A DNA stretch of 64,000 nt from a virus. Its lineage: Duplodnaviria > Heunggongvirae > Uroviricota > Caudoviricetes. The notes under the pieces are model-generated. The model had not been told where the DNA came from. It made no database searches and saw only the letters and a list, made by a program, of their open reading frames with translations. The stretch is taken from IMG/VR virus record IMGVR_UViG_2939521961_000009; one strand, 5' to 3'. The position numbers were made by a program, and so were the translations under genes. Shown in pieces: positions 1,917-38,301 of this stretch; positions within the stretch are counted from its first letter, which is position 1, and each line of letters starts with the position of its first letter.

Positions 1917-1942
1917 TCCCTGAAAACCTCGGTTTACGGGAA
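1917..1942. other. gix/pix-like recombination crossover site (left)
   Basis: Reverse complement reads TTCCCGTAAACC GA GGTTTTCAGGGA, closely matching the Mu gix site as recalled (TTCCTGTAAACC GA GGTTTTGGATAA). Confidence 0.6.
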
Positions 1943-2083
1943 ACGGTAAATAAGGCGGCGAATGCCCTGCCATCGAACGGAACGGCTGTTGCAGCGAATA
2001 AACTCGCCACTCCAAGAAATATTAATGGTGTCCCATTTGACGGAACGCAGGATATAAATATTACATCGGGGATGACGCAGTCT
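1931..2083. repeat. Inverted repeat, left copy (~155 bp) of invertible segment
   Basis: Plus-strand 1931-2083 is near-identical to reverse complement of 3152-3304 (e.g. shared GGTTTACGGGAAACGGTAAATAAGGC). Confidence 0.8.
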
Positions 2084-2287
2084 GTGGCTGACTCACGTTA
2101 TGTTCAAAGCATTCGAAGAGGTTCAAGGTCAACGATTGGAATGCAATATAATATTTTTGAAGTTCCTGACGGATGCGTACTTACAGGGCTTGATGTCGCT
2201 GGTGATGGTAATGCAACGGTAACCGCATATTATCGACCTGTTCAGTTTCTGATAGATGGTTCGTGGAAAACAGCTTCCAGCGCATAA
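1931..2287 (+). CDS. Alternative tail-fibre C-terminal segment (S'v-like), no own start, silent in current orientation
   Basis: Open frame through the left repeat into unique sequence ...SVADSRYVQSIRRG...YYRPVQFLIDGSWKTASSA; parallels the expressed fibre tip. Confidence 0.55.
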   Translation, partial: GLRETVNKAANALPSNGTAVAANKLATPRNINGVPFDGTQDINITSGMTQSVADSRYVQSIRRGSRSTIGMQYNIFEVPDGCVLTGLDVAGDGNATVTAYYRPVQFLIDGSWKTASSA

Positions 2288-2366
2288 AAGTGCAGTAGTT
2301 CAAAAAACAGATTATCTGAATAAATATATGATGATTTTGTCTTTTCAACAAAAACAAGGTGAAATA

Positions 2367-2888
2367 ATGGAGCTTATTAACGTAAAACGATATTACCCGG
2401 AACACAAACCCTATGGTGAGGATGTTCAGTATTTCCAGAGTGAGGACGGAAGGGATTTTTATGAATCTATCCCGCTTTTCACAAAGAAATACAAACTCTG
2501 TATTTCGCCTGTAACGGGTATTATCTGCTCTGTTGCTGAAGATGTCTCTGCTTTATATCCGGCAGGTTTTACTGTTGTTGAAGTGGACGAACTGCCGGAA
2601 GGTGTGAATATTGACGGTAACTGGCAGTTTTCTGATGGCCTGATATCAAAGGTGCCGGTAAACTGGAAGACGGTTGCTGAAAAGCGTCGCTCATCGCTGC
2701 TCCAGGAAGCCAACGAAACCGTGGATGACTGGAAAACAGAATTAAAACTGGACATGATTAGCGATGAAAATAAATTACAGCTGACGCGCTGGATGGCGTA
2801 TATCCGACAGCTTAAAGAAATGCACTTTAATGATATTGCCAGTGAGGGGCATTACCAGGCGATTCCCTGGCCGGAAAAACCGGAATAA
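2367..2888 (+). CDS. Tail fibre assembly protein (Tfa/U-like), in the currently inverted (non-expressed) orientation
   Basis: MELINVKRYYPEHKPYGEDVQYF... typical Tfa N-terminus; AAGGTGA Shine-Dalgarno 5 nt upstream of ATG at 2367; ORF track lists a longer 2256 start. Confidence 0.8.
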   Translation: MELINVKRYYPEHKPYGEDVQYFQSEDGRDFYESIPLFTKKYKLCISPVTGIICSVAEDVSALYPAGFTVVEVDELPEGVNIDGNWQFSDGLISKVPVNWKTVAEKRRSSLLQEANETVDDWKTELKLDMISDENKLQLTRWMAYIRQLKEMHFNDIASEGHYQAIPWPEKPE

Positions 2889-2922
2889 TTCAGAGGGTGC
2901 ATTCAGCACCCTTTTCTGTGGT

Positions 2923-3834
2923 TTACACTGAACTTACCGTTCTCCAGGCATTATTAATATAAATCTGAACCGGGCGATAATAGACCCCACCGATATTGTC
3001 CGCAGACCGGGAGCCGGTTTCCTGCACGTTAATACCGGAAAGCATACAACCGGAAGGTGCGCTGTAATTCCATGATATTTCATTGCCTCCGGGTGAATGA
3101 TAGCTCTGTGCTCCAAGCTGAACATTCTGTACATACCGGCCATCTGCGGTTGACTGCGTCATTCCTGACGTGATGTTGATATCCTGCGTTCCGTCAAAAG
3201 GAACGCCATTAATATTTCTTGGGGTGGCGAGTCTGTTTGCTGCCACGGCGGTTCCACCCGATGGCAGGGCATCAGCAGCCTTATTTACCGTTTCCCGTAA
3301 ACCGACGTTATCGATAAAAGCGCCTTTATCCGGAATGTCTGCGCCGTTCTGCTCCCTGCGCAGGTAACGGTTATCACCTTCGCTTTTGCTGTAAACATCC
3401 AGATTATTACGGGCGGTTCCCGCATTCTCCAGGTCGGCAAGGTTCTGATCCTTCGCCAGAGCATTAACGTCACCGGGACCAAGACTGTTTTTTGTGGCAA
3501 GCGCCCCAAGACCAAGATAACCACGGGCAAGACGCTGGGCTTCCGCACCGGCATCAGCAATTTCTTTCAGGTTGTTTTTCCGGGAAAAGGCATTCGCAGC
3601 GATAATGGCTTTAATGGACAGCGTAAGCTGGTTTAACTGCGCCTTATCCGGCTGAATACTGGCTTCAGCCAGAATATTCAGCAGTTCGGCCTGGAGAATA
3701 TTCAGCCAGTCCTGACCAATCCAGCTGATACCTTTTTGTCCGTCACCTTCGGTAAACCAGGTGGTGGTATTACTCTGCGCCGGTGCCAGCGCAGGCATAT
3801 TCGCCACGCCGGAATTATTATCAACATGAAACAT
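2923..3834 (-). CDS. Tail fibre protein (Mu S-like); constant N-terminus fused to the currently expressed variable tip
   Basis: 303 aa; C-terminus crosses the gix site and right inverted repeat; start overlaps stop of upstream gene at 3834. Confidence 0.8.
   Translation of the reverse strand: MFHVDNNSGVANMPALAPAQSNTTTWFTEGDGQKGISWIGQDWLNILQAELLNILAEASIQPDKAQLNQLTLSIKAIIAANAFSRKNNLKEIADAGAEAQRLARGYLGLGALATKNSLGPGDVNALAKDQNLADLENAGTARNNLDVYSKSEGDNRYLRREQNGADIPDKGAFIDNVGLRETVNKAADALPSGGTAVAANRLATPRNINGVPFDGTQDINITSGMTQSTADGRYVQNVQLGAQSYHSPGGNEISWNYSAPSGCMLSGINVQETGSRSADNIGGVYYRPVQIYINNAWRTVSSV
3152..3304. repeat. Inverted repeat, right copy of invertible segment
   Basis: Reverse complement matches 1931-2083; encodes the conserved ...ATPRNINGVPFDGTQDINITSGMTQ stretch in both tail-fibre variants. 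Confidence 0.8.
3292..3317. other. gix/pix-like recombination crossover site (right)
   Basis: TTCCCGTAAACC GA CGTTATCGATAA on plus strand; shares the 12-bp half-site with the left site in inverted orientation. Confidence 0.6.
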
Positions 3835-16074: not shown

Positions 16075-17198
16075 TATTGCATTTCCTCTTTCATTTTCAG
16101 GAACTCGGCTTCGGTTTTACCCAGCAGTTTGGCGGCCGCGATATCTTCAGCCGACAGCACAGCGGTGGCAGTCTTTTTATCCGGCACGGTCACGGTGTCG
16201 GTCTGAAGGCCGGTCAGGGCCGCAACCGGCTGGCGGGCGTCAAGCTGTGCAGAAAGTGCCGCAACGCCAATCTGCCCGCCCAGTTGTTCCAGATAGCCGC
16301 GTTCGCTTTTGAAGATGCGCCCTTCGGATTCAGCCTTGTCCAGCACCTGCTCCAGCGTGGTGCTGCCGTGCTGCGCCGACAGCGCAACGTATTCGGTACG
16401 CAGGGCGTTATACGTTTCAACGGGCACGTATTTCGTCAGATCAATACTGCCGCCAGCCGGTGTGCCTTTTGCGGTTTCCAGCTCTGCCGACAGACTGGCG
16501 ACCTGTGTTTTCAGGTTGTCGTGTGCATCCGCACGGGTTTTGATCCCGGTGAGGGCAGACAGCGCCGCCGTGCCCAGCTCCGGCGTAAATTCGTCACCGT
16601 CAGCCACGGTCAGACCGAGCGCCGTCAGCAACTGGCGTAATTGCTCATTCATGGAGGTATCCTTTAAAGGAGGGTTTAAGGCGTTATAAAGGTCATCCGC
16701 CGACAGTGCGGCGACAGGATTCATGCCGGTCAGACCGGGGTCACCGGTAATAGCCAGCATCCGAAGTTCGACAGGTTCGCCGGTGCTCTCGTCATAGCCA
16801 ATCACCGGTGAAAACCAGGGGAATTCGTTATTACGCAGATGTTCAAGGGCCGGAGGGTTCCACTTCGGGCGCACCTCGAAACCTCGCTCTTCACTGAAGC
16901 GAAAATTCTCCGGTGAGGCCATCACAAAACCGGCAGCCGGTGCCGGATGTCCCTCAATCAGGGTCTGGTGGTTGTAGTCAATTTTCACCGGCTGATTGAG
17001 CGCCACAACACGGGAGACCATGCGCTCAACGGCTGCATGGTTGATCAGCCAGCCCTCGGCCGGTTTTTCCGGGCGACCGTCACGGGCCTTTACCCGACCG
17101 GCTGGCATGATCTGACACCAGTCACCGTCCCCGTCTGCGGACAGGCTGATGGCATTCAGAATGGCATAAGCAAGTTTGGGCGTGTTTTTCGTCTTCAT
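16074..17198 (-). CDS. Head maturation protease/scaffold (Mu I-like)
   Basis: 374 aa with Ala/Leu-rich scaffold-like C-terminal half. Confidence 0.8.
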   Translation of the reverse strand: MKTKNTPKLAYAILNAISLSADGDGDWCQIMPAGRVKARDGRPEKPAEGWLINHAAVERMVSRVVALNQPVKIDYNHQTLIEGHPAPAAGFVMASPENFRFSEERGFEVRPKWNPPALEHLRNNEFPWFSPVIGYDESTGEPVELRMLAITGDPGLTGMNPVAALSADDLYNALNPPLKDTSMNEQLRQLLTALGLTVADGDEFTPELGTAALSALTGIKTRADAHDNLKTQVASLSAELETAKGTPAGGSIDLTKYVPVETYNALRTEYVALSAQHGSTTLEQVLDKAESEGRIFKSERGYLEQLGGQIGVAALSAQLDARQPVAALTGLQTDTVTVPDKKTATAVLSAEDIAAAKLLGKTEAEFLKMKEEMQ

Positions 17199-17374
17199 TC
17201 CGGCAGCATAGGCCGGGAATTTTCAGGGCGGGTTTTGCGGGATTTCAGGAAGTGCTTCCAGGGGAAAAATACAAAGGCGCTTCACGCAGATTTTAAAGCC
17301 CGTTAAATACAGGTTAGAAAATCACGACACGCGCCTGAAGGGGGTAAGGTAATGCATTTGCATACCTTAAACAA

Positions 17375-17848
17375 TTAAGGCGTTTCTGTGGCCTTTTTAA
17401 AGCGTTTTCTGATTTCGTCCATGATCTCCTGCTCTGCCACCTGATCAAAGCCCATATACGGACGTGCACCAATGGCCGCCGGTCCCGGCGGCATACCTGG
17501 CAGGCCACCCCACTGATGAATGGCCGCATAAGGCTCATTTGATCCAATCAGCGCCCAGGTGTCGCCATAATCCGTGGTCAGGCGTCGGGCCAGATCGCCG
17601 TTCAGCGTCAGGATTTTGCCGGGCATGTATCCCTTACGGGTACGCCACTTGCGGTAAGGATCTGACCAGTCATGCCAGCGTTCGCCGTCCGGCTCTTTTT
17701 CCTGTTCAAACGCCATTTCTGACGATGACAGAAGGCTGGACGCCACACTGCGGGCCAGGTCTTTTCCGCCACCCACAAACTGAAGCCGGGCAAAGACCCG
17801 CTGGAGACGCGTAACGTCAACAACGACGGCGGCATCAATGGATGACAT
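17375..17848 (-). CDS. Virion morphogenesis protein (Mu G-like)
   Basis: 157 aa between F-like and I-like genes. Confidence 0.7.
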   Translation of the reverse strand: MSSIDAAVVVDVTRLQRVFARLQFVGGGKDLARSVASSLLSSSEMAFEQEKEPDGERWHDWSDPYRKWRTRKGYMPGKILTLNGDLARRLTTDYGDTWALIGSNEPYAAIHQWGGLPGMPPGPAAIGARPYMGFDQVAEQEIMDEIRKRFKKATETP

Positions 17849-17969
17849 ATTGCCTCCGTATAAAATATGAATATAAAATAAGCAGGCGGTCAGTGTACGC
17901 TTAACTGGTAAAGTCGGTGCCTGCCTCCGGGTGGATCATGTATGCGGGTTCGACCCCCGCCACTGACCG

Positions 17970-19301
17970 TTAATCAATATCTCCTTCCAGTACCTCAAGC
18001 ATTCCGCCCCGGATATCCGATTTCAGCTTATCCATATTGATAACCCGGTAAGCATTAACAATCACATCCAGTTTATCCGGCTGACGCTTCAGGCTGTACG
18101 GTGCATTAACGGCAATCTGCACACTGCCATCCTGATTTTCCACGATATACATCAGATTGTTGTGCCGTTTGTCCCACAGTACCGCTTTTGGCCTTGCCAG
18201 CATTGCCGGTAAGCGCCCGAAATCCTCCGGTGTCAGGGCGATACCGTCATTCTGATGTTTCATGCTGTCCGCATGGAGCACATTTTTACCGCTCATCGCC
18301 AGCAGGCGGGCCGGTGGCGTTCCCGTCCGGCTTTCCACCGCCTGCGCAATGCTTTCGGTCATAAAGCCCAGCGTGCGGATATCGTTACCGCCTCGCCGGG
18401 TTTTCATGATGTTTTTTGCCCAGATGCGGAACGCCAGCTGCCGCTCCGGGCTGTTGTTCATCTCCTGAACCACCATTTCCCGTAACGCCGGGCTTTTCAC
18501 CTCGATCAACTTGCGGAGCAGCGCCTGGTCTGTGCCGAACGCCGCCGAACCGGGGTTATATGACCAGCCCACATCCGGTGTCATGGTTCTGGTGCCATCT
18601 GAATATGTGGTCACCGGCATTTCTCTGACTTCTCCGGTCTGCTTATCCACGCCAGCCTCAACATTGCGGGTGGAAAGATGATCCTGACCGGATGAAACGG
18701 ATAACCCCATTGCATCCAGACGGGTCTGAGACAATGGCCGGACACGGCAGCGGCAGTTCCAGCCATTGGGTGGGTAGTGTGTATTCCAGAACGGATCGTC
18801 ATAGCGGAATACCAGACCGTTAAGGGCGGAATGCGCCGGGCGGGTGCGGCTGTCCATCACCGCCACATACTGCCAGAACGGATGCGTGTCCGTGTTGTTC
18901 ATCATCTGCGTGTAACGCCCGGCATTGTAAGCCACGCGGGTGTTCACGTTGTAAATCAGCGCCAGACGGCGGGGACAGCCCAGCTGCACTTCTTCTGCGT
19001 TACCGGCGCTGTCCACCACAATCTGCTTTCCCCACCATCCCAGCTTTTGCAGGCGGGGGGTCAGTGTGCGGATAAATGCTTTCTGTGAAATCCCCTCATC
19101 AATGGCCCGTTGCACTTCCGCCTGTAGTGTGGTCAGTACGTCCAGGCGTGCCACTTTTGCCGCCGTGAACGAACGGGCATGAACATCCGCGTCTGTTTCG
19201 AACCAGTTCCAGCTGATATGCGCCCCTTTGGCGCGGAAGTATGCCACCGCCTCTTTTGAGGGAAGCGTGGCGGCATAACCTAAATCAATCCCCTGTGCCA
19301 T
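17970..19301 (-). CDS. Head morphogenesis protein (Mu F-like)
   Basis: 443 aa downstream of portal. Confidence 0.8.
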   Translation of the reverse strand: MAQGIDLGYAATLPSKEAVAYFRAKGAHISWNWFETDADVHARSFTAAKVARLDVLTTLQAEVQRAIDEGISQKAFIRTLTPRLQKLGWWGKQIVVDSAGNAEEVQLGCPRRLALIYNVNTRVAYNAGRYTQMMNNTDTHPFWQYVAVMDSRTRPAHSALNGLVFRYDDPFWNTHYPPNGWNCRCRVRPLSQTRLDAMGLSVSSGQDHLSTRNVEAGVDKQTGEVREMPVTTYSDGTRTMTPDVGWSYNPGSAAFGTDQALLRKLIEVKSPALREMVVQEMNNSPERQLAFRIWAKNIMKTRRGGNDIRTLGFMTESIAQAVESRTGTPPARLLAMSGKNVLHADSMKHQNDGIALTPEDFGRLPAMLARPKAVLWDKRHNNLMYIVENQDGSVQIAVNAPYSLKRQPDKLDVIVNAYRVINMDKLKSDIRGGMLEVLEGDID

Positions 19302-25172: not shown

Positions 25173-25598
25173 TCAGAAAAGTGGCGGTTGCGTTCTTGCC
25201 AGATGCAGACGGCGCTGTTCGCGTATGACGGTATAAATCTGGGTTTCTGACATCCGGTAATGGCGGCGAAGGGATTCAATTTTCTCGCCCCGGTCCCAGC
25301 GCGAAAATATCTCATTGTTTCGCAGCTCGGCAAAGAGAGATTCCCCGACCGGCAGGTAATAACCCCGTCCGCCCATATAGGCTGCCTGAGCCGCAGCCAC
25401 CTTGCGTGCCAGTTTACCGGCCAGTACCGGCTCAATCCCCTGACGCTGAAGTTCTGCGCCGGTGACTTCAACCAGTTCTGACAGGGTCCGCGGCCAGTTC
25501 TTTTTGAGAACATCATCAGGGATGTCATCAAGGCGGTCGATAAGGGCGTGCAGTTGCTCACTGTCACCACCAAACATGCTCATCTGAGTTTCTGCCAT
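25173..25598 (-). CDS. Mor/C-family transcriptional activator (late/middle gene activator)
   Basis: 141 aa with C-terminal HTH-like region, positioned immediately upstream of the lysis/late genes as in Mu. Confidence 0.75.
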   Translation of the reverse strand: MAETQMSMFGGDSEQLHALIDRLDDIPDDVLKKNWPRTLSELVEVTGAELQRQGIEPVLAGKLARKVAAAQAAYMGGRGYYLPVGESLFAELRNNEIFSRWDRGEKIESLRRHYRMSETQIYTVIREQRRLHLARTQPPLF

Positions 25599-25667: not shown

Positions 25668-26177
25668 TTAACGGGGAAGTGATTTTTCATACTGCCTGCA
25701 AACGGCGTCATACCCCATCAGCGTGCGTTCGGGCATTCCCATCGCGGCCAGCATTTTGCGGCGGTGCCATCGCTTGAGACGCTCCAGCACATCTGAGGCC
25801 AGGGCGGGGTGTTGCTCCAGCCACTGCCAGTTTGCCACACCTTCGCCGCCGTTTTGCGCGGCCGTCTGCGATTTCACCCAGCGGTTAAGGGCGGTTTCCG
25901 CACCATCGGTGATAAAGCCCTGCCGGTGCATCACCTTCCAGATGGCGCGAATTTTGGCGGTCACCGTACCCGGTTTTAAGGCCCGGTTAACCGGGTTCTG
26001 ACGCACTTTAAAACCGCGTTTTTTGAAAACATCCAGCACGCGGGATAACTCATCCGGTGACATATCCCGGCAGCTGGTTTTGCCGGTGGCTGCCAGCAGC
26101 GCGGATGTATAAGTCTCATCATCCAGGGCAAGCTCGCGCTTTGCCACATGAATGGCGGATATCAGTTTTCCTCTCAT
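25668..26177 (-). CDS. GemA-like protein (Mu gp16-like)
   Basis: 169 aa, position upstream of Mor/C-like gene. Confidence 0.65.
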   Translation of the reverse strand: MRGKLISAIHVAKRELALDDETYTSALLAATGKTSCRDMSPDELSRVLDVFKKRGFKVRQNPVNRALKPGTVTAKIRAIWKVMHRQGFITDGAETALNRWVKSQTAAQNGGEGVANWQWLEQHPALASDVLERLKRWHRRKMLAAMGMPERTLMGYDAVCRQYEKSLPR

Positions 26178-26470: not shown

Positions 26471-26657
26471 TATCTTTCTCCTTATTCAGTCTTCTGCGAC
26501 ATTCGGCACAGTCATCAGGGCTTTCAAATGTATCCGGCTCGCGATTATGAGCCAGATATAACCACCGCCTACATATACTGATATTATCGCCAGTTTTAAA
26601 AAAATGATGCTTCTTAGCCATCAGAGGGCGCGCCCATCCAGCGGGTAGACTATTCAT
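26460..26657 (-). CDS. Hypothetical small protein (accessory cassette)
   Basis: 65 aa; overlaps neighbours at both ends. Confidence 0.45.
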   Translation of the reverse strand: MNSLPAGWARPLMAKKHHFFKTGDNISICRRWLYLAHNREPDTFESPDDCAECRRRLNKEKDNGQ

Positions 26658-27024
26658 TTGCTTTATCCTCCATACTGGACAAAATCATCTGTATTAATGT
26701 CGGGCGTGGAGATATACGCATTTCATTAAGCGTCTGAAGGGCAGCAACAGCTGCCTGTTTATCGGTGCCTTTGGCAATTTCCGCAAGAGAATGCACAATC
26801 CATAACGGACTTAACGCCACGACTGAATCCAGAATCATGTCATCCATAATAATTTCTGACACATCCCGCTTATCACATTCCTTATCCATAAAAGAAACGA
26901 TTTTTTCCACATCTTCCGGTTTCATGCCTCCGGCGATAAGAAATTTGCGATACTCATAAGACGATCTTAATTCAATACTCATATTCATCTCCTGTAACTC
27001 TGACAAGGACGTGATTTTTCTCAT
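26650..27024 (-). CDS. Hypothetical acidic protein (accessory cassette)
   Basis: 124 aa; ATG overlaps stop of the restored upstream small ORF (ATGA). Confidence 0.5.
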   Translation of the reverse strand: MRKITSLSELQEMNMSIELRSSYEYRKFLIAGGMKPEDVEKIVSFMDKECDKRDVSEIIMDDMILDSVVALSPLWIVHSLAEIAKGTDKQAAVAALQTLNEMRISPRPTLIQMILSSMEDKANE

Positions 27025-27118
27025 TTATGTTTTCCAGTAATACGGATATATATGTCGATAAGAAGATTCATAATAAACAGGAAGAGCGACATCCTGATAA
27101 AGAACCAAATATCTGGCA

Positions 27119-27205
27119 TCATGGACAGGTTTCCTGTAATCGCAAATATAACCCCCCCCCCAACACCGGAACGAAAATTGCGAAAAATACAAGTCTCTTT
27201 ATCAT
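27119..27205 (-). pseudogene. Small membrane-protein ORF interrupted by G10 tract (28 codons as sequenced; 61 aa to 27021 if tract is G11 or G8)
   Basis: ATG 27205 overlaps stop of upstream gene; MIKRLVFFAIFVPVLGGG then frame exits; restored frame is hydrophobic and ends in ATGA overlap with next gene. Confidence 0.45.
27152..27161. repeat. Homopolymeric tract, C10 on plus strand (G10 on coding strand)
   Basis: Ten consecutive C at 27152-27161. Confidence 0.95.
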
Positions 27206-27753
27206 GGCGTTAACTCCCGTAATACAGCGTCCTCGGCAGTCCGGCGATGGTGATAAATAAAATTCACCGTACTCTCGGATAATTCAAATTTCTCGCCTAT
27301 TTCCCGGAAGGTAAGACGTCGTGGTGATTCAGCATCCCGTAATTCACGAATAAGATGAACATCATCGTCAGGTATACGGGTGAAGGGCAGCAATTCTCCG
27401 TATTTTTTCATGCTTACGCCAATATATCGCGCCCGATTGTGGACAGAATCCCGGTCTCGCCCCAGATATTCTCCTATTTGCTTACCGGTCATCGTTCTGG
27501 CATTTTTTCGGATAAATTTATCTTCATCATGTTTAAATCTTGGACGTTTGCATTTGAGCAACTCCGGGTAAGTACCGCGTAATAAAACAATCCGGTTATG
27601 TACACCCCAGAAACTTCTTTTTACCCTGACAGCAATATCCTTAACCGGGGTGGATGGATAAAGCGCAATCAGCAGCGCATCTTCTTCAGGTGTCCACGCA
27701 CGGACATGAGCAGGTGCCTGACCTTTTCGCCCCATGGGTTGTAAAATCATCAT
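27202..27753 (-). CDS. Hypothetical protein, possible DNA-binding regulator
   Basis: 183 aa basic protein with repeated helix-rich segments; function not recognised. Confidence 0.5.
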   Translation of the reverse strand: MMILQPMGRKGQAPAHVRAWTPEEDALLIALYPSTPVKDIAVRVKRSFWGVHNRIVLLRGTYPELLKCKRPRFKHDEDKFIRKNARTMTGKQIGEYLGRDRDSVHNRARYIGVSMKKYGELLPFTRIPDDDVHLIRELRDAESPRRLTFREIGEKFELSESTVNFIYHHRRTAEDAVLRELTP

Positions 27754-27756
27754 ACA

Positions 27757-28272
27757 TCACCCCCTGACTCGCTTTTCAGCAGCATAAAACTCATCAGACA
27801 GAATTTCGGTCATTTTCTGATTTGCGGGTTTTACGCCGCACTCAAGGTAAATCACATCGTCAACGCAGAACCACTTCACAGGGCCAAACATGATTGCCGA
27901 GAAATCAATACCCAGCCAGAACAACAGTGCATCGGTTCTGGCATACGTGACGGGCGAATATTCACGCCACAGACTGTTAAGTTCGTCAGAGGCAACGCGC
28001 AGGGCTTTGGGAATACGTGATGTGCGCGGTGTGCAGCTCCAGCCATTCGACGCAGTCGGTTTTCGCCATAAGTCGCGATGAAAAGGATATTTGTCATCCA
28101 TAAAGCGCAGCCCTTTAAAACAAAAGCCACTGATACCGGATACAAATACCGACCGGCACGCAACATTCAGCACGGCCTCAAGGCGTTTTGCCTCATCCTT
28201 AACTTTCTGGCAGTCCTGCTGATATTTTTGCCACGCGGCCAGCGCGGAAGGGTTTGATGTTTTAAAGAACAT
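27757..28272 (-). CDS. Hypothetical early-region protein
   Basis: 171 aa ORF, tightly packed with neighbours. Confidence 0.5.
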   Translation of the reverse strand: MFFKTSNPSALAAWQKYQQDCQKVKDEAKRLEAVLNVACRSVFVSGISGFCFKGLRFMDDKYPFHRDLWRKPTASNGWSCTPRTSRIPKALRVASDELNSLWREYSPVTYARTDALLFWLGIDFSAIMFGPVKWFCVDDVIYLECGVKPANQKMTEILSDEFYAAEKRVRG

Positions 28273-28805
28273 TACGCCACCTCCGCAGATATCCCGGCAG
28301 GCGCGGCCGTCCGGTCAACAATCAGGTAACGCAGAACGCGCGAGGTGATATTCCAGCCGCTTAAACCGCAGATAATGACACCCAGGCGTATGTCGATATA
28401 CGCCATCACAAACTGGGGCACGCCTTCTTTCATGGCCTGCTCATCAACTTCAGCCACCACATAAACGGTTTCACAGGTCAGAACGCCCTGAGCAAATTCC
28501 CACGCCATTGACGGAATATCATGCCCCTCAATCCACGGCAGGGATTTTCTGAAGCTGCACCACTGAACATCATCAGCCGCACCTTCCTGGCTGCATTTGC
28601 GACGAACCGGCTGCACCGGGCGGGGACGCGGAATATCATAAAAACCGTTACATTCCGTCAGCACCCCGGCATCGACCGCATCACGCAGAAAATAAACCAT
28701 CGAGGATGGCGGCATATTCATTTTTTCAGCCAGAATGCCGCAGGTCAGACGCCCGTAAATACTCAGCCAGTTTTTAACCCCTTCAAGCACTTTTGCATCA
28801 ATCAT
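28272..28805 (-). CDS. Hypothetical early-region protein
   Basis: 177 aa ORF, start overlaps upstream stop. Confidence 0.5.
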   Translation of the reverse strand: MIDAKVLEGVKNWLSIYGRLTCGILAEKMNMPPSSMVYFLRDAVDAGVLTECNGFYDIPRPRPVQPVRRKCSQEGAADDVQWCSFRKSLPWIEGHDIPSMAWEFAQGVLTCETVYVVAEVDEQAMKEGVPQFVMAYIDIRLGVIICGLSGWNITSRVLRYLIVDRTAAPAGISAEVA

Positions 28806-28808
28806 GAA

Positions 28809-29351
28809 TTATTCCTCCGTCAGCGCCACATATTCAGAATGTTTAATCTCCTGGCATTCTTCAGGAATACCCCCTTTTATTTCCCTGCCATAAGCGCCTA
28901 CTTTAAACACCACGCACAGGGCATCACGGGAGAGCGACGGGGTCCACCAGGAGTCCATGTTAAACATGGAGGGGATTCTCATTACCCCCAGCTTTTCACA
29001 GAGCCAGACAAGGAAATCAGGACGCTTTCTTAACTCGCGTTCAGCGGCTTCAATCATTGCGGCAATCGCCGGTCCTTCAGGGCATGACTCATCAGGTCTG
29101 GCAATAAAGCACGGTCCGTCCCCGATAAAAGCCACATCATCGCGCTTACGCCAGCCCGCAGGCAGAGCACCAGAAAAATAAAACTCACTGATTACGTCCA
29201 TGGCAAACGGCTTTAAGCGCAATCCGGCAGCGCCTGTATTTTTCAGTAATGCCCGAAGAATACTGTTGCGTAGCGGTAAAACAGTCTGTTGATATTTGGT
29301 GAAATATTTATTTGTCTGCACACGGTCTAATTTGAAATAAAAATATGCCAT
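28809..29351 (-). CDS. Hypothetical early-region protein
   Basis: 180 aa ORF. Confidence 0.5.
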   Translation of the reverse strand: MAYFYFKLDRVQTNKYFTKYQQTVLPLRNSILRALLKNTGAAGLRLKPFAMDVISEFYFSGALPAGWRKRDDVAFIGDGPCFIARPDESCPEGPAIAAMIEAAERELRKRPDFLVWLCEKLGVMRIPSMFNMDSWWTPSLSRDALCVVFKVGAYGREIKGGIPEECQEIKHSEYVALTEE

Positions 29352-29448: not shown

Positions 29449-29979
29449 TTATTTATTCAGTCCGGCGTCCTGTTCAAAAGGCTCGACATAAAAACTTTCA
29501 GCGCCTTTATTCACCTTAATACCGGCAATGCCTTTCACTGCATCCGGCTCCGCCAGGACCGCTTCCTTGTTCACTTCCTCTTTCGTGCGGATGAATCGCT
29601 CAAGCCCCATACGGCGCAGCATTTCAATCACACCTTCCACATCACGGCTGACGCTGCATGATGGATTTCCCAGCCGCCATGATACTGTTCCGGTGGTCAG
29701 ATTGGCTGTTTTGGTTTTGCCGCCGTTCGTCAGCTCATCGCGGTTGGTTTTGCACCAGTCCTGAATCCCCTTAAAAAGCACTTTGATTTCTTTTTTAAGG
29801 TTTTCAATCTGCGGCGTATAACGGGCGGTGATTTCTGCCACTTCATCATTCATCGCCGTTTCCAGCCGCAGCGCCTCTCGCTGAATATCGCCCAGGGTAC
29901 GGATATCGCGGCTGACTTCTTCGCGGGTCTGCGGTGCAGCCTCGGCTGCGGCCTTTAATTTTGTAACACGTTTAGCCAT
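29449..29979 (-). CDS. gam: Gam-like host-nuclease inhibitor protein
   Basis: 176 aa, coiled-coil-rich, Mu Gam-like sequence and position. Confidence 0.75.
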   Translation of the reverse strand: MAKRVTKLKAAAEAAPQTREEVSRDIRTLGDIQREALRLETAMNDEVAEITARYTPQIENLKKEIKVLFKGIQDWCKTNRDELTNGGKTKTANLTTGTVSWRLGNPSCSVSRDVEGVIEMLRRMGLERFIRTKEEVNKEAVLAEPDAVKGIAGIKVNKGAESFYVEPFEQDAGLNK

Positions 29980-35654: not shown

Positions 35655-35838
35655 GGTAAATTAGCAGTATCAAATGTGTCGCCGTTTTTTGATCTTTTGA
35701 CTATTTGTTGAGCAGTCGGTATCAAAAAGAGTTTTCCGTCCGAAGTATACATCACCTGTTTTATTTCAGCATCTTACAGGTGATTTCACCTCCTTTCACT
35801 AAAACCCTTGTCGGTATCAAATGATTCACCTGGTTACA
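35655..35838. repeat. Mu-like left-end (attL) with three transposase-binding repeats and terminal TG
   Basis: Minus strand reads TGTAACCAGG TGAATCATTTGATACCGACAAG (like Mu L1 TGATTCACTTGAAGTACGAAAA); further TTTGATAC(C/T)G copies at 35707-35729 and 35655-35678. Confidence 0.55.
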
Positions 35839-35985
35839 CTGGTCGGCAGTTCGGTTCTCCCGTCGGGCTTTGTGTGTCCGCGTCGTTTTTACGGCCTCAT
35901 AAGCCTGGATCACCGCACGGGAACGCAGCCTTGCCGCTTTCCATCCTGGTGAAAAAACGCCAATCACATCATCAAGAATTGCCAT
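35839..35985 (-). pseudogene. Lambda-family portal protein, N-terminal 49 codons only (truncated by Mu-like insertion)
   Basis: MAILDDVIGVFSPGWKAARLRSRAVIQAYEAVKTTRTHKARRENRTADQ then frame runs into Mu-like end; follows W and terminase A in lambda order. Confidence 0.65.
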
Positions 35986-36203
35986 CAGAACCTCGCCAGC
36001 CGGTACCCGGGATGCCCCCGTCGTCGTGTAATCAGAGCCGCAAGGCGGCGCTCCCACTCCTGCCGTCCCTGCCGGATCTCAGATAAGTTTTCCATGGTCA
36101 TCTGCTGACCATTAAAGGTGACGGATTTTCCGTCCAGCACCGCCATTTCAGCTTCCGTATAACGCTGAATCATGGCTTCGATATCATTCTGGTTCATAAC
36201 CAT
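35985..36203 (-). CDS. Head-tail joining protein W-like
   Basis: 72 aa ending ...RRRGHPGYRLARF, located between terminase A and portal. Confidence 0.65.
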   Translation of the reverse strand: MVMNQNDIEAMIQRYTEAEMAVLDGKSVTFNGQQMTMENLSEIRQGRQEWERRLAALITRRRGHPGYRLARF

Positions 36204-38293
36204 CCTCCGGAAGTCAGCCAGGGGTTAACATCGTCAGTTACTGTTTTCTTCCGTTTTTGTTTTTTAACAGGCGTGGATACCGGTTCCGGTGAGGATGACG
36301 GTTCGGTACTGTCCTGGACACACTCCAGCCAGGTCTCCCGGCTCGCCCACTCCGGTGCATCCGGCCAGCGGATCTTTTCGTATCCATGCAGAATGACCAG
36401 AGCCTCGGCATACACCATCAGGTCAAAAGCTTCGTTGGCACCGCGACCCGGCTTACTCCATTTCCCGTCACTGCTCCGCTCTTCATACGTCAGTTCGTCG
36501 TAAAACCAGCTCCCCAGCCAGTCAGGGAAATGCACATAGCCTGGACCTGGCGAGTCACGCCATAACGCGTTATTCACCCGGTCTTTCAGGGCATCCGTCT
36601 GAAGAAGCCAGAGCGGCACATCACCTGCGGCCTGCGCCCGGCGGCCCGTTCGTCCGGTGTTATCAGGGAATGTACGGCTGATCAGTTTTGCGCGCCGGAT
36701 GCTGTCACCCTTAAACAGGTAAATACGTTTACCAAGGCCATCACGACGGCAACGACGCCAGAATTTATAGGCATTATCAGTGACCCCGTCTTCACCGCCG
36801 GAGTCCACCGCCATTGCCATCAGTCGCATTTGTTGAGAAGGATCGGAGGCCAGCGGCCAGCTTTTATGAAAAACATCCGTCAGCAGGACATCCCAGTCTT
36901 CCGGATAGCTGGCCGGATCAATTCGCTGGCTCTCCCCGTCGCAGTCACTGCGCAATGACTGCGTGATGTTGTAACGATCAATAATCCAGCGTTCGCCACG
37001 ACTGCCATAGCCCGTTACCTGAACCACAAAACGGCGATGACGTCCCGCCTGCACATCCACTGTCGCCACAAGGAAATTAACGCCATCCGGCACACTGCGG
37101 GAAGGAACTGGCTCTGCCCGCTGCTCAAGCAGTTCACTTTTTCGTTGCTCCATGCTGGCACGAGGAAGATAAGGCAATCCCCAGTCGGTGTTGATAACCG
37201 CCCTGAGTGTTTCTTCGCTTCCTGTCGCTTCATACTCCTGTTCTGCAGTCAGTAATTTGTAAACCAGTTGCGCCCAGGTCTGATACGCAGCAGCTGGCCC
37301 TTCCATCCAGAAACTGGCGATACGGGAGCGGCGCGGTTCACCGGAAACGTTGCCGTTACGATCAATGACCTGACCTTCACGCAACCAGACTCCTGCACTA
37401 TTGAGCTCACGCTTTTTCTCCGCAGTGATAATGCCGCTGCAGTGCGGGCAAAGTAGATACGCCGCCTCACTGGCTTTAAAGGGATCCGGTTCATTACGGT
37501 AGCCGGTCATGGCATCCATGGCTGGCTGAAAATATTCACCGCAGTGCGGACATGACCAGTACCAGCGGCGGCGGTCACCACGATTGTAAAGGGAAAGAAT
37601 ACCAGTCGTCGGTGGCGCTTCATGAGGCGACTTACGTCGCCATTTGCTGTCGCAGATGTCACGTCCCGGCGAGCTCTCCACCAGAGTCATCCCAGCGGAC
37701 ATAAATGTGGTGGTACGTTTTGAGGCCAGGGAGAAACCATCACCCTCGCTGTCGATATTCTCCGGAAAACGGTCGTAATCGGTTAAGGCGACAAACCGGT
37801 AATCCGACGACGACATAATGTTGACCGAGGGCCAACCAATTTTAAGGAACGAGCCATCCCTGAACGTCTTATCATGGACATTATTGTCGTTACGACGTGG
37901 ACTCATTCTTTTCTTTACCGCCGCACTGCTTCTGAACGTTCTGTCGAGGCGCTTTTTAGAATGCTCGCGGGCCTTATCTTCGGTCATCTGCACAACGAGC
38001 ATGTCCGAAGGATCGCAAACGATGGTATAGACAATCCATCCATCGATCAGACCAATGGTCTTCCCTGTTCGCGCAGGACCAACAAAAATCACCGCATCGT
38101 ATTCACGCGATGCCAGGCAGTTCATGGGCTCAATGATGTAGGGTGTCAGTTCAGGATCCCATGGCACCGAGTTACCAGCCCCCTTGGGAACACGCATGAA
38201 TTTTTTAACAGCCTCCGAAATCGGCATGCGACGTGGTGGGGAAAATCCTGCCGATATGTCCCTTCCCAAATTTCGGGCTGATGAAAAACCCAT
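36194..38293 (-). CDS. Terminase large subunit (lambda gpA-like)
   Basis: 699 aa; Walker A GPARTGKT. Confidence 0.9.
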   Translation of the reverse strand: MGFSSARNLGRDISAGFSPPRRMPISEAVKKFMRVPKGAGNSVPWDPELTPYIIEPMNCLASREYDAVIFVGPARTGKTIGLIDGWIVYTIVCDPSDMLVVQMTEDKAREHSKKRLDRTFRSSAAVKKRMSPRRNDNNVHDKTFRDGSFLKIGWPSVNIMSSSDYRFVALTDYDRFPENIDSEGDGFSLASKRTTTFMSAGMTLVESSPGRDICDSKWRRKSPHEAPPTTGILSLYNRGDRRRWYWSCPHCGEYFQPAMDAMTGYRNEPDPFKASEAAYLLCPHCSGIITAEKKRELNSAGVWLREGQVIDRNGNVSGEPRRSRIASFWMEGPAAAYQTWAQLVYKLLTAEQEYEATGSEETLRAVINTDWGLPYLPRASMEQRKSELLEQRAEPVPSRSVPDGVNFLVATVDVQAGRHRRFVVQVTGYGSRGERWIIDRYNITQSLRSDCDGESQRIDPASYPEDWDVLLTDVFHKSWPLASDPSQQMRLMAMAVDSGGEDGVTDNAYKFWRRCRRDGLGKRIYLFKGDSIRRAKLISRTFPDNTGRTGRRAQAAGDVPLWLLQTDALKDRVNNALWRDSPGPGYVHFPDWLGSWFYDELTYEERSSDGKWSKPGRGANEAFDLMVYAEALVILHGYEKIRWPDAPEWASRETWLECVQDSTEPSSSPEPVSTPVKKQKRKKTVTDDVNPWLTSGGWL

Positions 38294-38301
38294 TATTCCT
38301 C

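Follow-up and report, generated by a model that had tools for sequence, protein, structure and literature searches.

The 64,000-nucleotide stretch of viral DNA that we analyzed (hereafter, the window) carries on its minus strand a run of ten G residues, which probably represents a one-base contraction of a hypermutable run of eleven that arose recently inside a conserved 61-codon gene in the early operon of an Sp18-type Mu-like prophage. As judged from sequence comparisons, the tract is best read as an ordinary unstable homopolymer, a lineage-specific mutational accident and not an evolved operon switch.

A run of ten Gs interrupts a small gene of the early operon

The minus strand has an ATG (27205–27203) that overlaps, in an ATGA arrangement, the TGA (27204–27202) of an upstream ORF of 183 codons (27202..27753). 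A Shine-Dalgarno-like GGGAG motif (27214..27218, minus strand; upstream string ACGCTGTATTACGGGAGTTAACGCC) precedes this ATG by 8 nt and falls within the last part of the upstream gene. That upstream gene, also on the minus strand, encodes a DNA-binding helix-turn-helix (HTH) protein, which matched the phrog_323 transcriptional regulator (E 6e-59). The frame opened by the ATG runs into ten G residues at 27161–27152 (C10 on the plus strand), which shift it into a 28-amino-acid product, MIKRLVFFAIFVPVLGGGLYLRLQETCP, that stops at TGA 27121–27119 (truncated N-terminal ORF at 27119..27205, minus strand, from frame analysis). The original prediction had described this arrangement and had proposed that eleven or eight Gs would restore a hidden gene. 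Rebuilding the gene with 7 to 14 Gs reproduced both products (61 amino acids for G11 and 60 for G8), each ending at TGA 27023–27021, which overlaps ATG 27024, and added G14 as a further in-frame length (62 amino acids). The intact gene, as delimited by the frames and by annotated relatives, occupies 27021..27205 on the minus strand, and the G tract (27152..27161, minus strand) falls on codons 15–18, within predicted transmembrane helix 1. Its in-frame parent is G11, the length found in the two nearest relatives, War and 2012C-4502, whose sequence around the tract is otherwise identical to that of the window.

The tract is the longest homopolymer in the 64-kb window, in which the second G/C run is 7 nt and the remaining runs are all at most 8 nt. 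An i.i.d. model predicts 0.12 G/C runs of at least 10 nt per 64 kb, and long runs are scarcer still in actual E. coli DNA, by a wide margin: the 4.6-Mb genome of E. coli K-12 contains just one run of 10 nt (10.1101/346874). The small gene thus harbors a slippage-prone repeat within coding sequence, the G11 parent of which exceeds any run in K-12.

The Mu-like prophage spans window positions 1 to 35838 and belongs to the Sp18 type, known from E. coli O157:H7 Sakai (PMC2669165). It resembles Sp18 and phage Mu in its succession of repressor, ner-like, transposase A, B, kil, gam, gp11-like, gp12-like, small genes, GemA, Mor, lysis, and head genes. Within its early region the order on the minus strand is Gam (29449..29979), gp11-like (28272..28805), gp12-like (27757..28272), the HTH gene, the small gene, three further small genes, GemA/gp16 (25668..26177), Mor (25173..25598), lysozyme, and the head genes. 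This order places the small gene in the semi-essential early region, between gam and gemA/mor, with its neighbors on the same strand and overlapping by 4–11 nt.

The interrupted gene belongs to a conserved but dispensable family

The proposal that a gene is hidden behind the frameshift was borne out by the annotation of relatives, as more than 50 complete E. coli genomes have the restored 61-amino-acid frame annotated, and this frame shows purifying selection. A 136-nt query spanning the tract matched 56 records from 55 complete E. coli genomes. Homologs of the restored frame, for which we searched in related prophages, were present as an annotated 186-nt CDS in every relative that we opened, labeled 'hypothetical protein' (or, in one source, 'membrane protein'; accessions WP_047381727.1, WP_000595947.1, WP_000595948.1, WP_000621195.1, WP_000595949.1, WP_062899254.1, and WP_046201632.1). 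The ORF was intact in all eight diverged alleles, down to 88% DNA identity, and pN/pS relative to the G11 allele was 0.21 for L011, 0.29 for L010, and 0.40 for L012. Its product has two hydrophobic segments, which AlphaFold, run on the family alignment, rendered as helices at residues 2–27 and 33–57 (mean pLDDT 71). We regard the small gene as real and already annotated, encoding a predicted two-helix inner-membrane protein.

Searches of Pfam, NCBIfam, and PHROGs returned nothing usable for the 61-amino-acid protein, the sole match being phrog_19804, a family of unknown function (E 9e-4). A tblastn search of 50,697 phage records recovered one Mu-like insert only, and no homolog was detectable in Mu, D108, or SfMu, which distinguishes this gene from the rest of the Mu-like layout. 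A profile search of 1.84 billion representatives retrieved only the family's own cluster, and all 16 clusters of the family came from E. coli or Shigella. With a single cluster at 50% identity in a set of that size, the family is an orphan of the Mu-like (Sp18-type) prophages of E. coli and Shigella. The most plausible guess at its function is a non-essential membrane role, such as superinfection exclusion or host-envelope modulation.

The gene has also been inactivated by other routes in other lineages. An independent frameshift allele, G6TTGGTTTT, which carries a +1 change in a short run, recurs in several O157-type assemblies (L002, O157:H7 ECP19-798; L019, GCA_003360035.1; and L028, from IMG/VR), and PGAP annotates it as a frameshifted pseudogene. 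Elsewhere, an IS21-family element (transposase plus IstB) sits in the 5′ half of the gene and leaves only the C-terminal 33 codons (L018/L037, GCA_047308285.1). The recurrent frameshift and the insertion argue that the gene is probably dispensable. In one further assembly (P0015, an NCBI contig of 1.43 Mb), the predicted product is 61 amino acids long with an internal out-of-frame stretch (…VVGGWFYICDYRKPVHDARYWFFIRM…), in which a +1 shift at the tract is compensated by a −1 shift ~17 codons later; this allele is either a true compensated double frameshift or the product of an error-prone assembly.

Tract length varies between near-identical prophage copies

In public assemblies of the poly-G lineage we found tracts of G8, G9, G11 (the mode), G12, and G13, to which the window adds G10. 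The contig with G8 (L023), which encodes exactly the in-frame 60-amino-acid product (P0002), matched the window over 2.58 kb without mismatch except for two missing Gs. The contig with G12 (L034), read at the DNA level, had no mismatches to the window in 1.38 kb, and that with G13 (L016/L035, SRR12341383) differed over 20.1 kb by one SNP and three Gs, such that all three contigs had at most one substitution each in 1.4–20 kb of flanking sequence. Three lengths occurred within a single clone: the window (G10), War (G11), and SRR12341383 (G13) have a common insertion junction and differ by at most one SNP per 20 kb. The same prophage in 2012C-4502, at a different insertion site, has G11. In-frame and out-of-frame lengths are therefore both represented among very close relatives, and this range from G8 to G13 between near-identical copies is what a slippage hotspot produces, in keeping with the slipped-strand variation that had been suspected from the window.

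The products predicted exactly from each length were found on 228 contigs for G11, 21–22 for G12, five for G9, and one for G8, counts that do not represent independent isolates, in that outbreak clones are overrepresented and one sequencing run may have been assembled by both NCBI and Logan. The 28/29-amino-acid products and 54–56-amino-acid TTG-initiated ORFs diagnostic for G7, G10, and G13 were absent from the protein collection. As a control we considered the short-run alleles, each present on at least 1000 contigs; because their +1 product was found on only six contigs, the instability is specific to the long run. A second marker is the 33-amino-acid ORF at 27021..27122 (minus strand), which keeps the original frame and covers helix 2, the C-terminal half of the intact protein; it is called as a gene in assemblies in which the upstream part is out of frame. 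It was found on 117 contigs and is a mixed marker, arising with G13, G6TTGG, G7TGG, G8TGG, slips in T runs, and the IS21 insertion; 15 of the 24 such contigs that we read resembled the G13 contig, with the tract itself seen in one of these (G13). The predominance of G11, an in-frame length, could stem from purifying selection, and hence from some function, rather than from pure neutrality.

Single-base under-calling of long G/C homopolymers is a familiar error mode, and G/C runs of at least 10 nt are the hardest sites for every sequencing platform. We nonetheless lean toward the ten Gs of the window being a real genotype, as opposed to a base-calling error. The competing explanation, in which the isolate carries G11 and base-calling or consensus building dropped a G, is the less probable one, though it deserves serious weight. 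It draws on the G11 of War and 2012C-4502, from which the window differs, as it does from intact orthologs, by a single-base indel inside a homopolymer (PGAP flags a comparable allele as 'frameshifted'), on the tract being the most error-prone site of the region, and on the occurrence of G10 in none of the complete RefSeq genomes. Nor did we see a second G10 assembly among the contigs in which the tract was read, the largest class with the 33-amino-acid ORF being represented there by one contig (G13). Against an error stands the comparison with War, which carries the prophage at the same chromosomal locus: window 3152–64000 differed from it by three isolated SNPs and by one indel, the G of the tract, leaving no other indel in 60.8 kb that include 25 runs of 7–8 nt. 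The assembly is therefore not one with a general tendency to homopolymer errors, although the test is weak in that no other run is longer than 8 nt. Moreover, G8 and G13 in the same lineage are hard to explain as errors, and in their company a real G10 is unsurprising. Although there may be a technical contribution to length differences of ±1, base-calling noise is an unlikely source of differences of 2–3 bases, and because such differences are present we conclude from the assembled sequences that real slippage occurs at the tract.

The long run is a recent product of stepwise substitution

Most alleles of the small gene lack the run. The commonest are G5TTGGTTTT (encoding LGVGF; at least 1000 contigs) and G6TGGTTTT (LGGGF; at least 1000 contigs for its protein), and these connect through G9TTTT (LGGGF, strain 93_0495) to G11TT (LGGGV, War and 2012C-4502; the 228 contigs counted above) and then to the out-of-frame G10TT of the window. 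The series is stepwise, with the reading frame kept at every step before the G10 of the window. More diverged alleles had GGGGGACTGGTTTT (WGTGF, L010), GGGGATTGGTTTT (LGIGF, an insert in an Stx2c phage), or G6TTGGTTTT after GTGT (WGVGF, E2865), and the outgroup residues at this position (WGTGF, WGVGF, LGIGF, and GVVGF) all correspond to an interrupted G-x-G-F. This comparison shows that the ancestral site was interrupted (GGGGGTTGGTTTT, Leu-Gly-Val-Gly-Phe). Because the outgroups are all interrupted, the long run is a recent, derived allele restricted to one sub-lineage. Conservation of the tract across lineages was accordingly poor, with most alleles interrupted by G5TTGG, G6TGG, GGGGGACTGG, or other sequences. 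G11 was present in 2 of the 56 complete-genome records, and none of the seven contigs from our scans of IMG/VR (six contigs) and JGI metagenomes (one contig) had a poly-G copy, all seven carrying interrupted alleles.

The codons changed along the series fall on the most variable columns of the family alignment, 14–17, which suggests weak constraint at these positions. Viewed on the plus strand, each step is an A>C change at the A that borders the C run on its 5′ side (AACCCCC > ACCCCCC, then CCACCCCCC > C9). [quoted passage not shown] One T>G change after another at its border lengthened the run from G5TTGG through G6TGG and G9 to G11. We propose that the substitutions arose from transient misalignment and the length changes from replication slippage. 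Because substitution and indel rates both increase with run length, the process would act as a ratchet, in which each extension raises the chance of further extension and eventually of length slippage. At about eleven Gs, length began to vary between otherwise identical prophage copies (G8–G13). The tract would thereby be an incidental outcome of mutation bias, in a weakly constrained part of a dispensable gene, and not a selected switch.

We weighed this account against one in which the poly-G run is a contingency locus, kept by selection as a reversible ON/OFF switch of the membrane protein and, through coupling, of the downstream accessory genes, as a form of bet-hedging. Several observations are of the kind that such a locus would give: tract length is polymorphic inside one clone, in-frame (G8, G11) and out-of-frame variants both circulate, the target is a predicted membrane protein, and the same prophage already uses DNA inversion for tail-fiber variation. 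We nevertheless consider selection for switching very unlikely, in that most alleles, and every diverged relative, lack the run, a known mutational hotspot explains it without selection, the gene has been inactivated by other routes, and no phenotype is attached to the tract; the behavior of ribosomes at the downstream start, described below, weighs against it as well.

Every tract length is predicted to deliver ribosomes to the next start codon

The original prediction had envisaged an accessory operon gated by the tract. Frame analysis led us to reject such a gate. When the tract length is 2 mod 3, translation of the small gene ends at the TGA overlapping ATG 27024. When it is 0 mod 3, the frame acquires a scrambled tail and ends at TAA 27027–27025, which directly abuts the same ATG. 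When it is 1 mod 3, as in the window, translation ends at TGA 27121–27119, which overlaps a second start, ATG 27122–27120 (ATGA, with AGGA 9 nt upstream); this ATG reopens the original frame to produce the 33-amino-acid half containing helix 2, which again ends on ATG 27024. The small gene thus toggles among three states (intact, with a scrambled tail, or split into 28- and 33-amino-acid parts), with ribosomes predicted to be delivered to the next start in each of them.

The start of the downstream gene bears on how much this delivery matters. The TGA at 27021 does overlap ATG 27024, as had been noted, and from that ATG the downstream gene (26650..27024, minus strand) would encode 124 amino acids. 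The claim needs a qualification as to where the annotated gene begins: PGAP and other gene calls start it 42 nt further down, at ATG 26982 (110 amino acids). This annotated start lies behind an AGGAG Shine-Dalgarno sequence (26993–26989), and PHROG 1988 aligns from residue 15 of the 124-amino-acid reading. Translational coupling at the 3′ end of the small gene is at most possible, and the downstream gene does not require it. The ATGA junction is nevertheless a genuine gene boundary, because in a mosaic lineage a different downstream gene starts at it. The first four codons (MRKI) of the 124-amino-acid reading are common to that different gene, which suggests a putative recombination joint just after the ATGA overlap, in the 26982–27024 region.

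With a restart codon at or beside every stop and a strong ribosome-binding site of its own ahead of the next gene, the downstream genes would be little affected by tract length. The gated operon is contradicted also by the rarity of the long run (2 of 56 complete-genome records and none of seven viral or metagenome contigs). A scan around the tract for an internal promoter or terminator gave no signal above shuffled expectation.

A different way for G10 to be functional would be recoding, in which RNA polymerase slips, or the ribosome shifts frame, on the G run and full-length protein results. RNA-polymerase slippage can occur at long homopolymers, with A/T runs of at least 9 nt being the best documented case, and a G10 template might conceivably yield some G11 transcripts as a minority. 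The annotated homologs, however, are all plain 186-nt ORFs, most of them without any slippery run, and among them we saw neither a conserved out-of-frame architecture nor a stimulatory structure, leaving recoding exceedingly improbable. We also considered a conserved programmed frameshift; its two-ORF architecture was not found, the homologs being single 186-nt ORFs.

Comparison with known phase-variable systems

The original prediction had not recognized a poly-G-gated prophage accessory operon as something described. A slipped-strand switch on an E. coli prophage is in fact already known, according to the account in PMC3046976: neuO on prophage CUS-3 of E. coli K1, a 'mobile contingency locus' (Deszo et al. 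2005, cited there), which provides the precedent on which a contingency reading of our tract could draw. By that account, neuO is likewise a prophage-borne E. coli gene whose frame is switched by replication slippage in a repeat in its 5′ coding region, with repeat number varying among isolates. It differs in that its repeat is a heptanucleotide VNTR of 2–93 copies that is a conserved, defining feature of the gene, with a demonstrated phenotype (capsule O-acetylation) and measured switching. Unlike neuO, the tract described here is a mononucleotide run, present in one sub-lineage, located mid-gene in a predicted transmembrane helix, and known from sequence alone. Our literature search found no homopolymer switch in a Mu-like prophage of E. 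coli, and the systematic survey of phase variation in E. coli concerned inversions only.

The tract also resembles the homopolymeric phase variation of Neisseria, Haemophilus, Campylobacter, and Bordetella, in which a poly-G/C run in coding sequence toggles the frame by ±1 and varies in length among close relatives, as in gonococcal lgt (PMC2192423) and the tracts of B. pertussis (PMC1891110). Those genera, however, have many tracts, conserved at orthologous loci and usually in genes for surface structures, whereas long runs are strongly depleted in E. coli, and the tract here is young and unconserved. Judged against this class, our tract appears to behave alike but lacks the conservation across lineages. 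The allelic series, for its part, bears exactly the signature of the AC3+ hotspot (PMC13250602; 10.1101/346874), in that at every step the base adjoining the C run on its 5′ side undergoes an A:T>C:G change and becomes part of the run. Mutation-accumulation lines in the laboratory served to define the hotspot, whereas here the steps come from natural alleles and their direction from outgroups.

A functioning, naturally born contingency locus, in which a homopolymer switch on a transposable Mu-like prophage reversibly toggles three forms of a small membrane protein (intact, with a scrambled tail, or divided into two coupled peptides of one helix each), is quite unlikely in our estimation. If true, the switch would affect phage exclusion or lysogen fitness and would have been caught at its origin, through a ratchet at an AC-run hotspot. 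Under the reading that we prefer, a contraction of a recent, hypermutable run, the tract reveals no new regulatory principle and has no phenotype attached to it. For mutation biology, the natural series would illustrate how transient misalignment can ratchet a few Gs into a hypermutable homopolymer, of a kind that E. coli normally lacks, and it indicates how a contingency-like locus could arise without prior selection. For annotation, a real gene is dropped by ORF-based tracks and by PGAP protein sets when the tract is out of frame, and the proper label in such cases is a frameshifted copy of the WP_047381727 family, rather than empty space. For genomic epidemiology, the tract is a predictable hotspot of false SNPs and indels in STEC-type genomes that carry the Mu-like prophage.

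Other features of the prophage

The Mu-like prophage is inserted inside a lambdoid prophage, with its c-end at 35838 adjoining a portal remnant and a terminase gene (35830–38300). In 2012C-4502 the same prophage lies elsewhere and truncates an alpha-galactosidase gene, and in strain 8479 it is found both on the chromosome and on a 167-kb plasmid, a double location that suggests recent transposition. In the G13 assembly SRR12341383 (L035), a further SNP (G>A at window-equivalent 28853) coincides with a shorter call (166 versus 180 amino acids) for the gene at 28809..29351. PGAP annotates a 'tRNA-OTHER' at ~17889–17968 on the plus strand (War 2977378–2977457), between the virion-morphogenesis and head-morphogenesis genes, and ARAGORN found no tRNA or tmRNA in window 17000–18800. 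The tail-fiber host-range segment is inverted relative to War and 2012C-4502: window 1925–3312 matches the opposite strand of War at 99.8%, with mirrored clusters of differences at its two edges (1957–2082 and 3152–3277), and a recombinase gene lies at ~1301–1861 on the minus strand. An invertible host-range segment is thus a further likeness to Sp18 and Mu, and the inversion at 1925–3312 is the Gin/G-segment-type switch already known for both.
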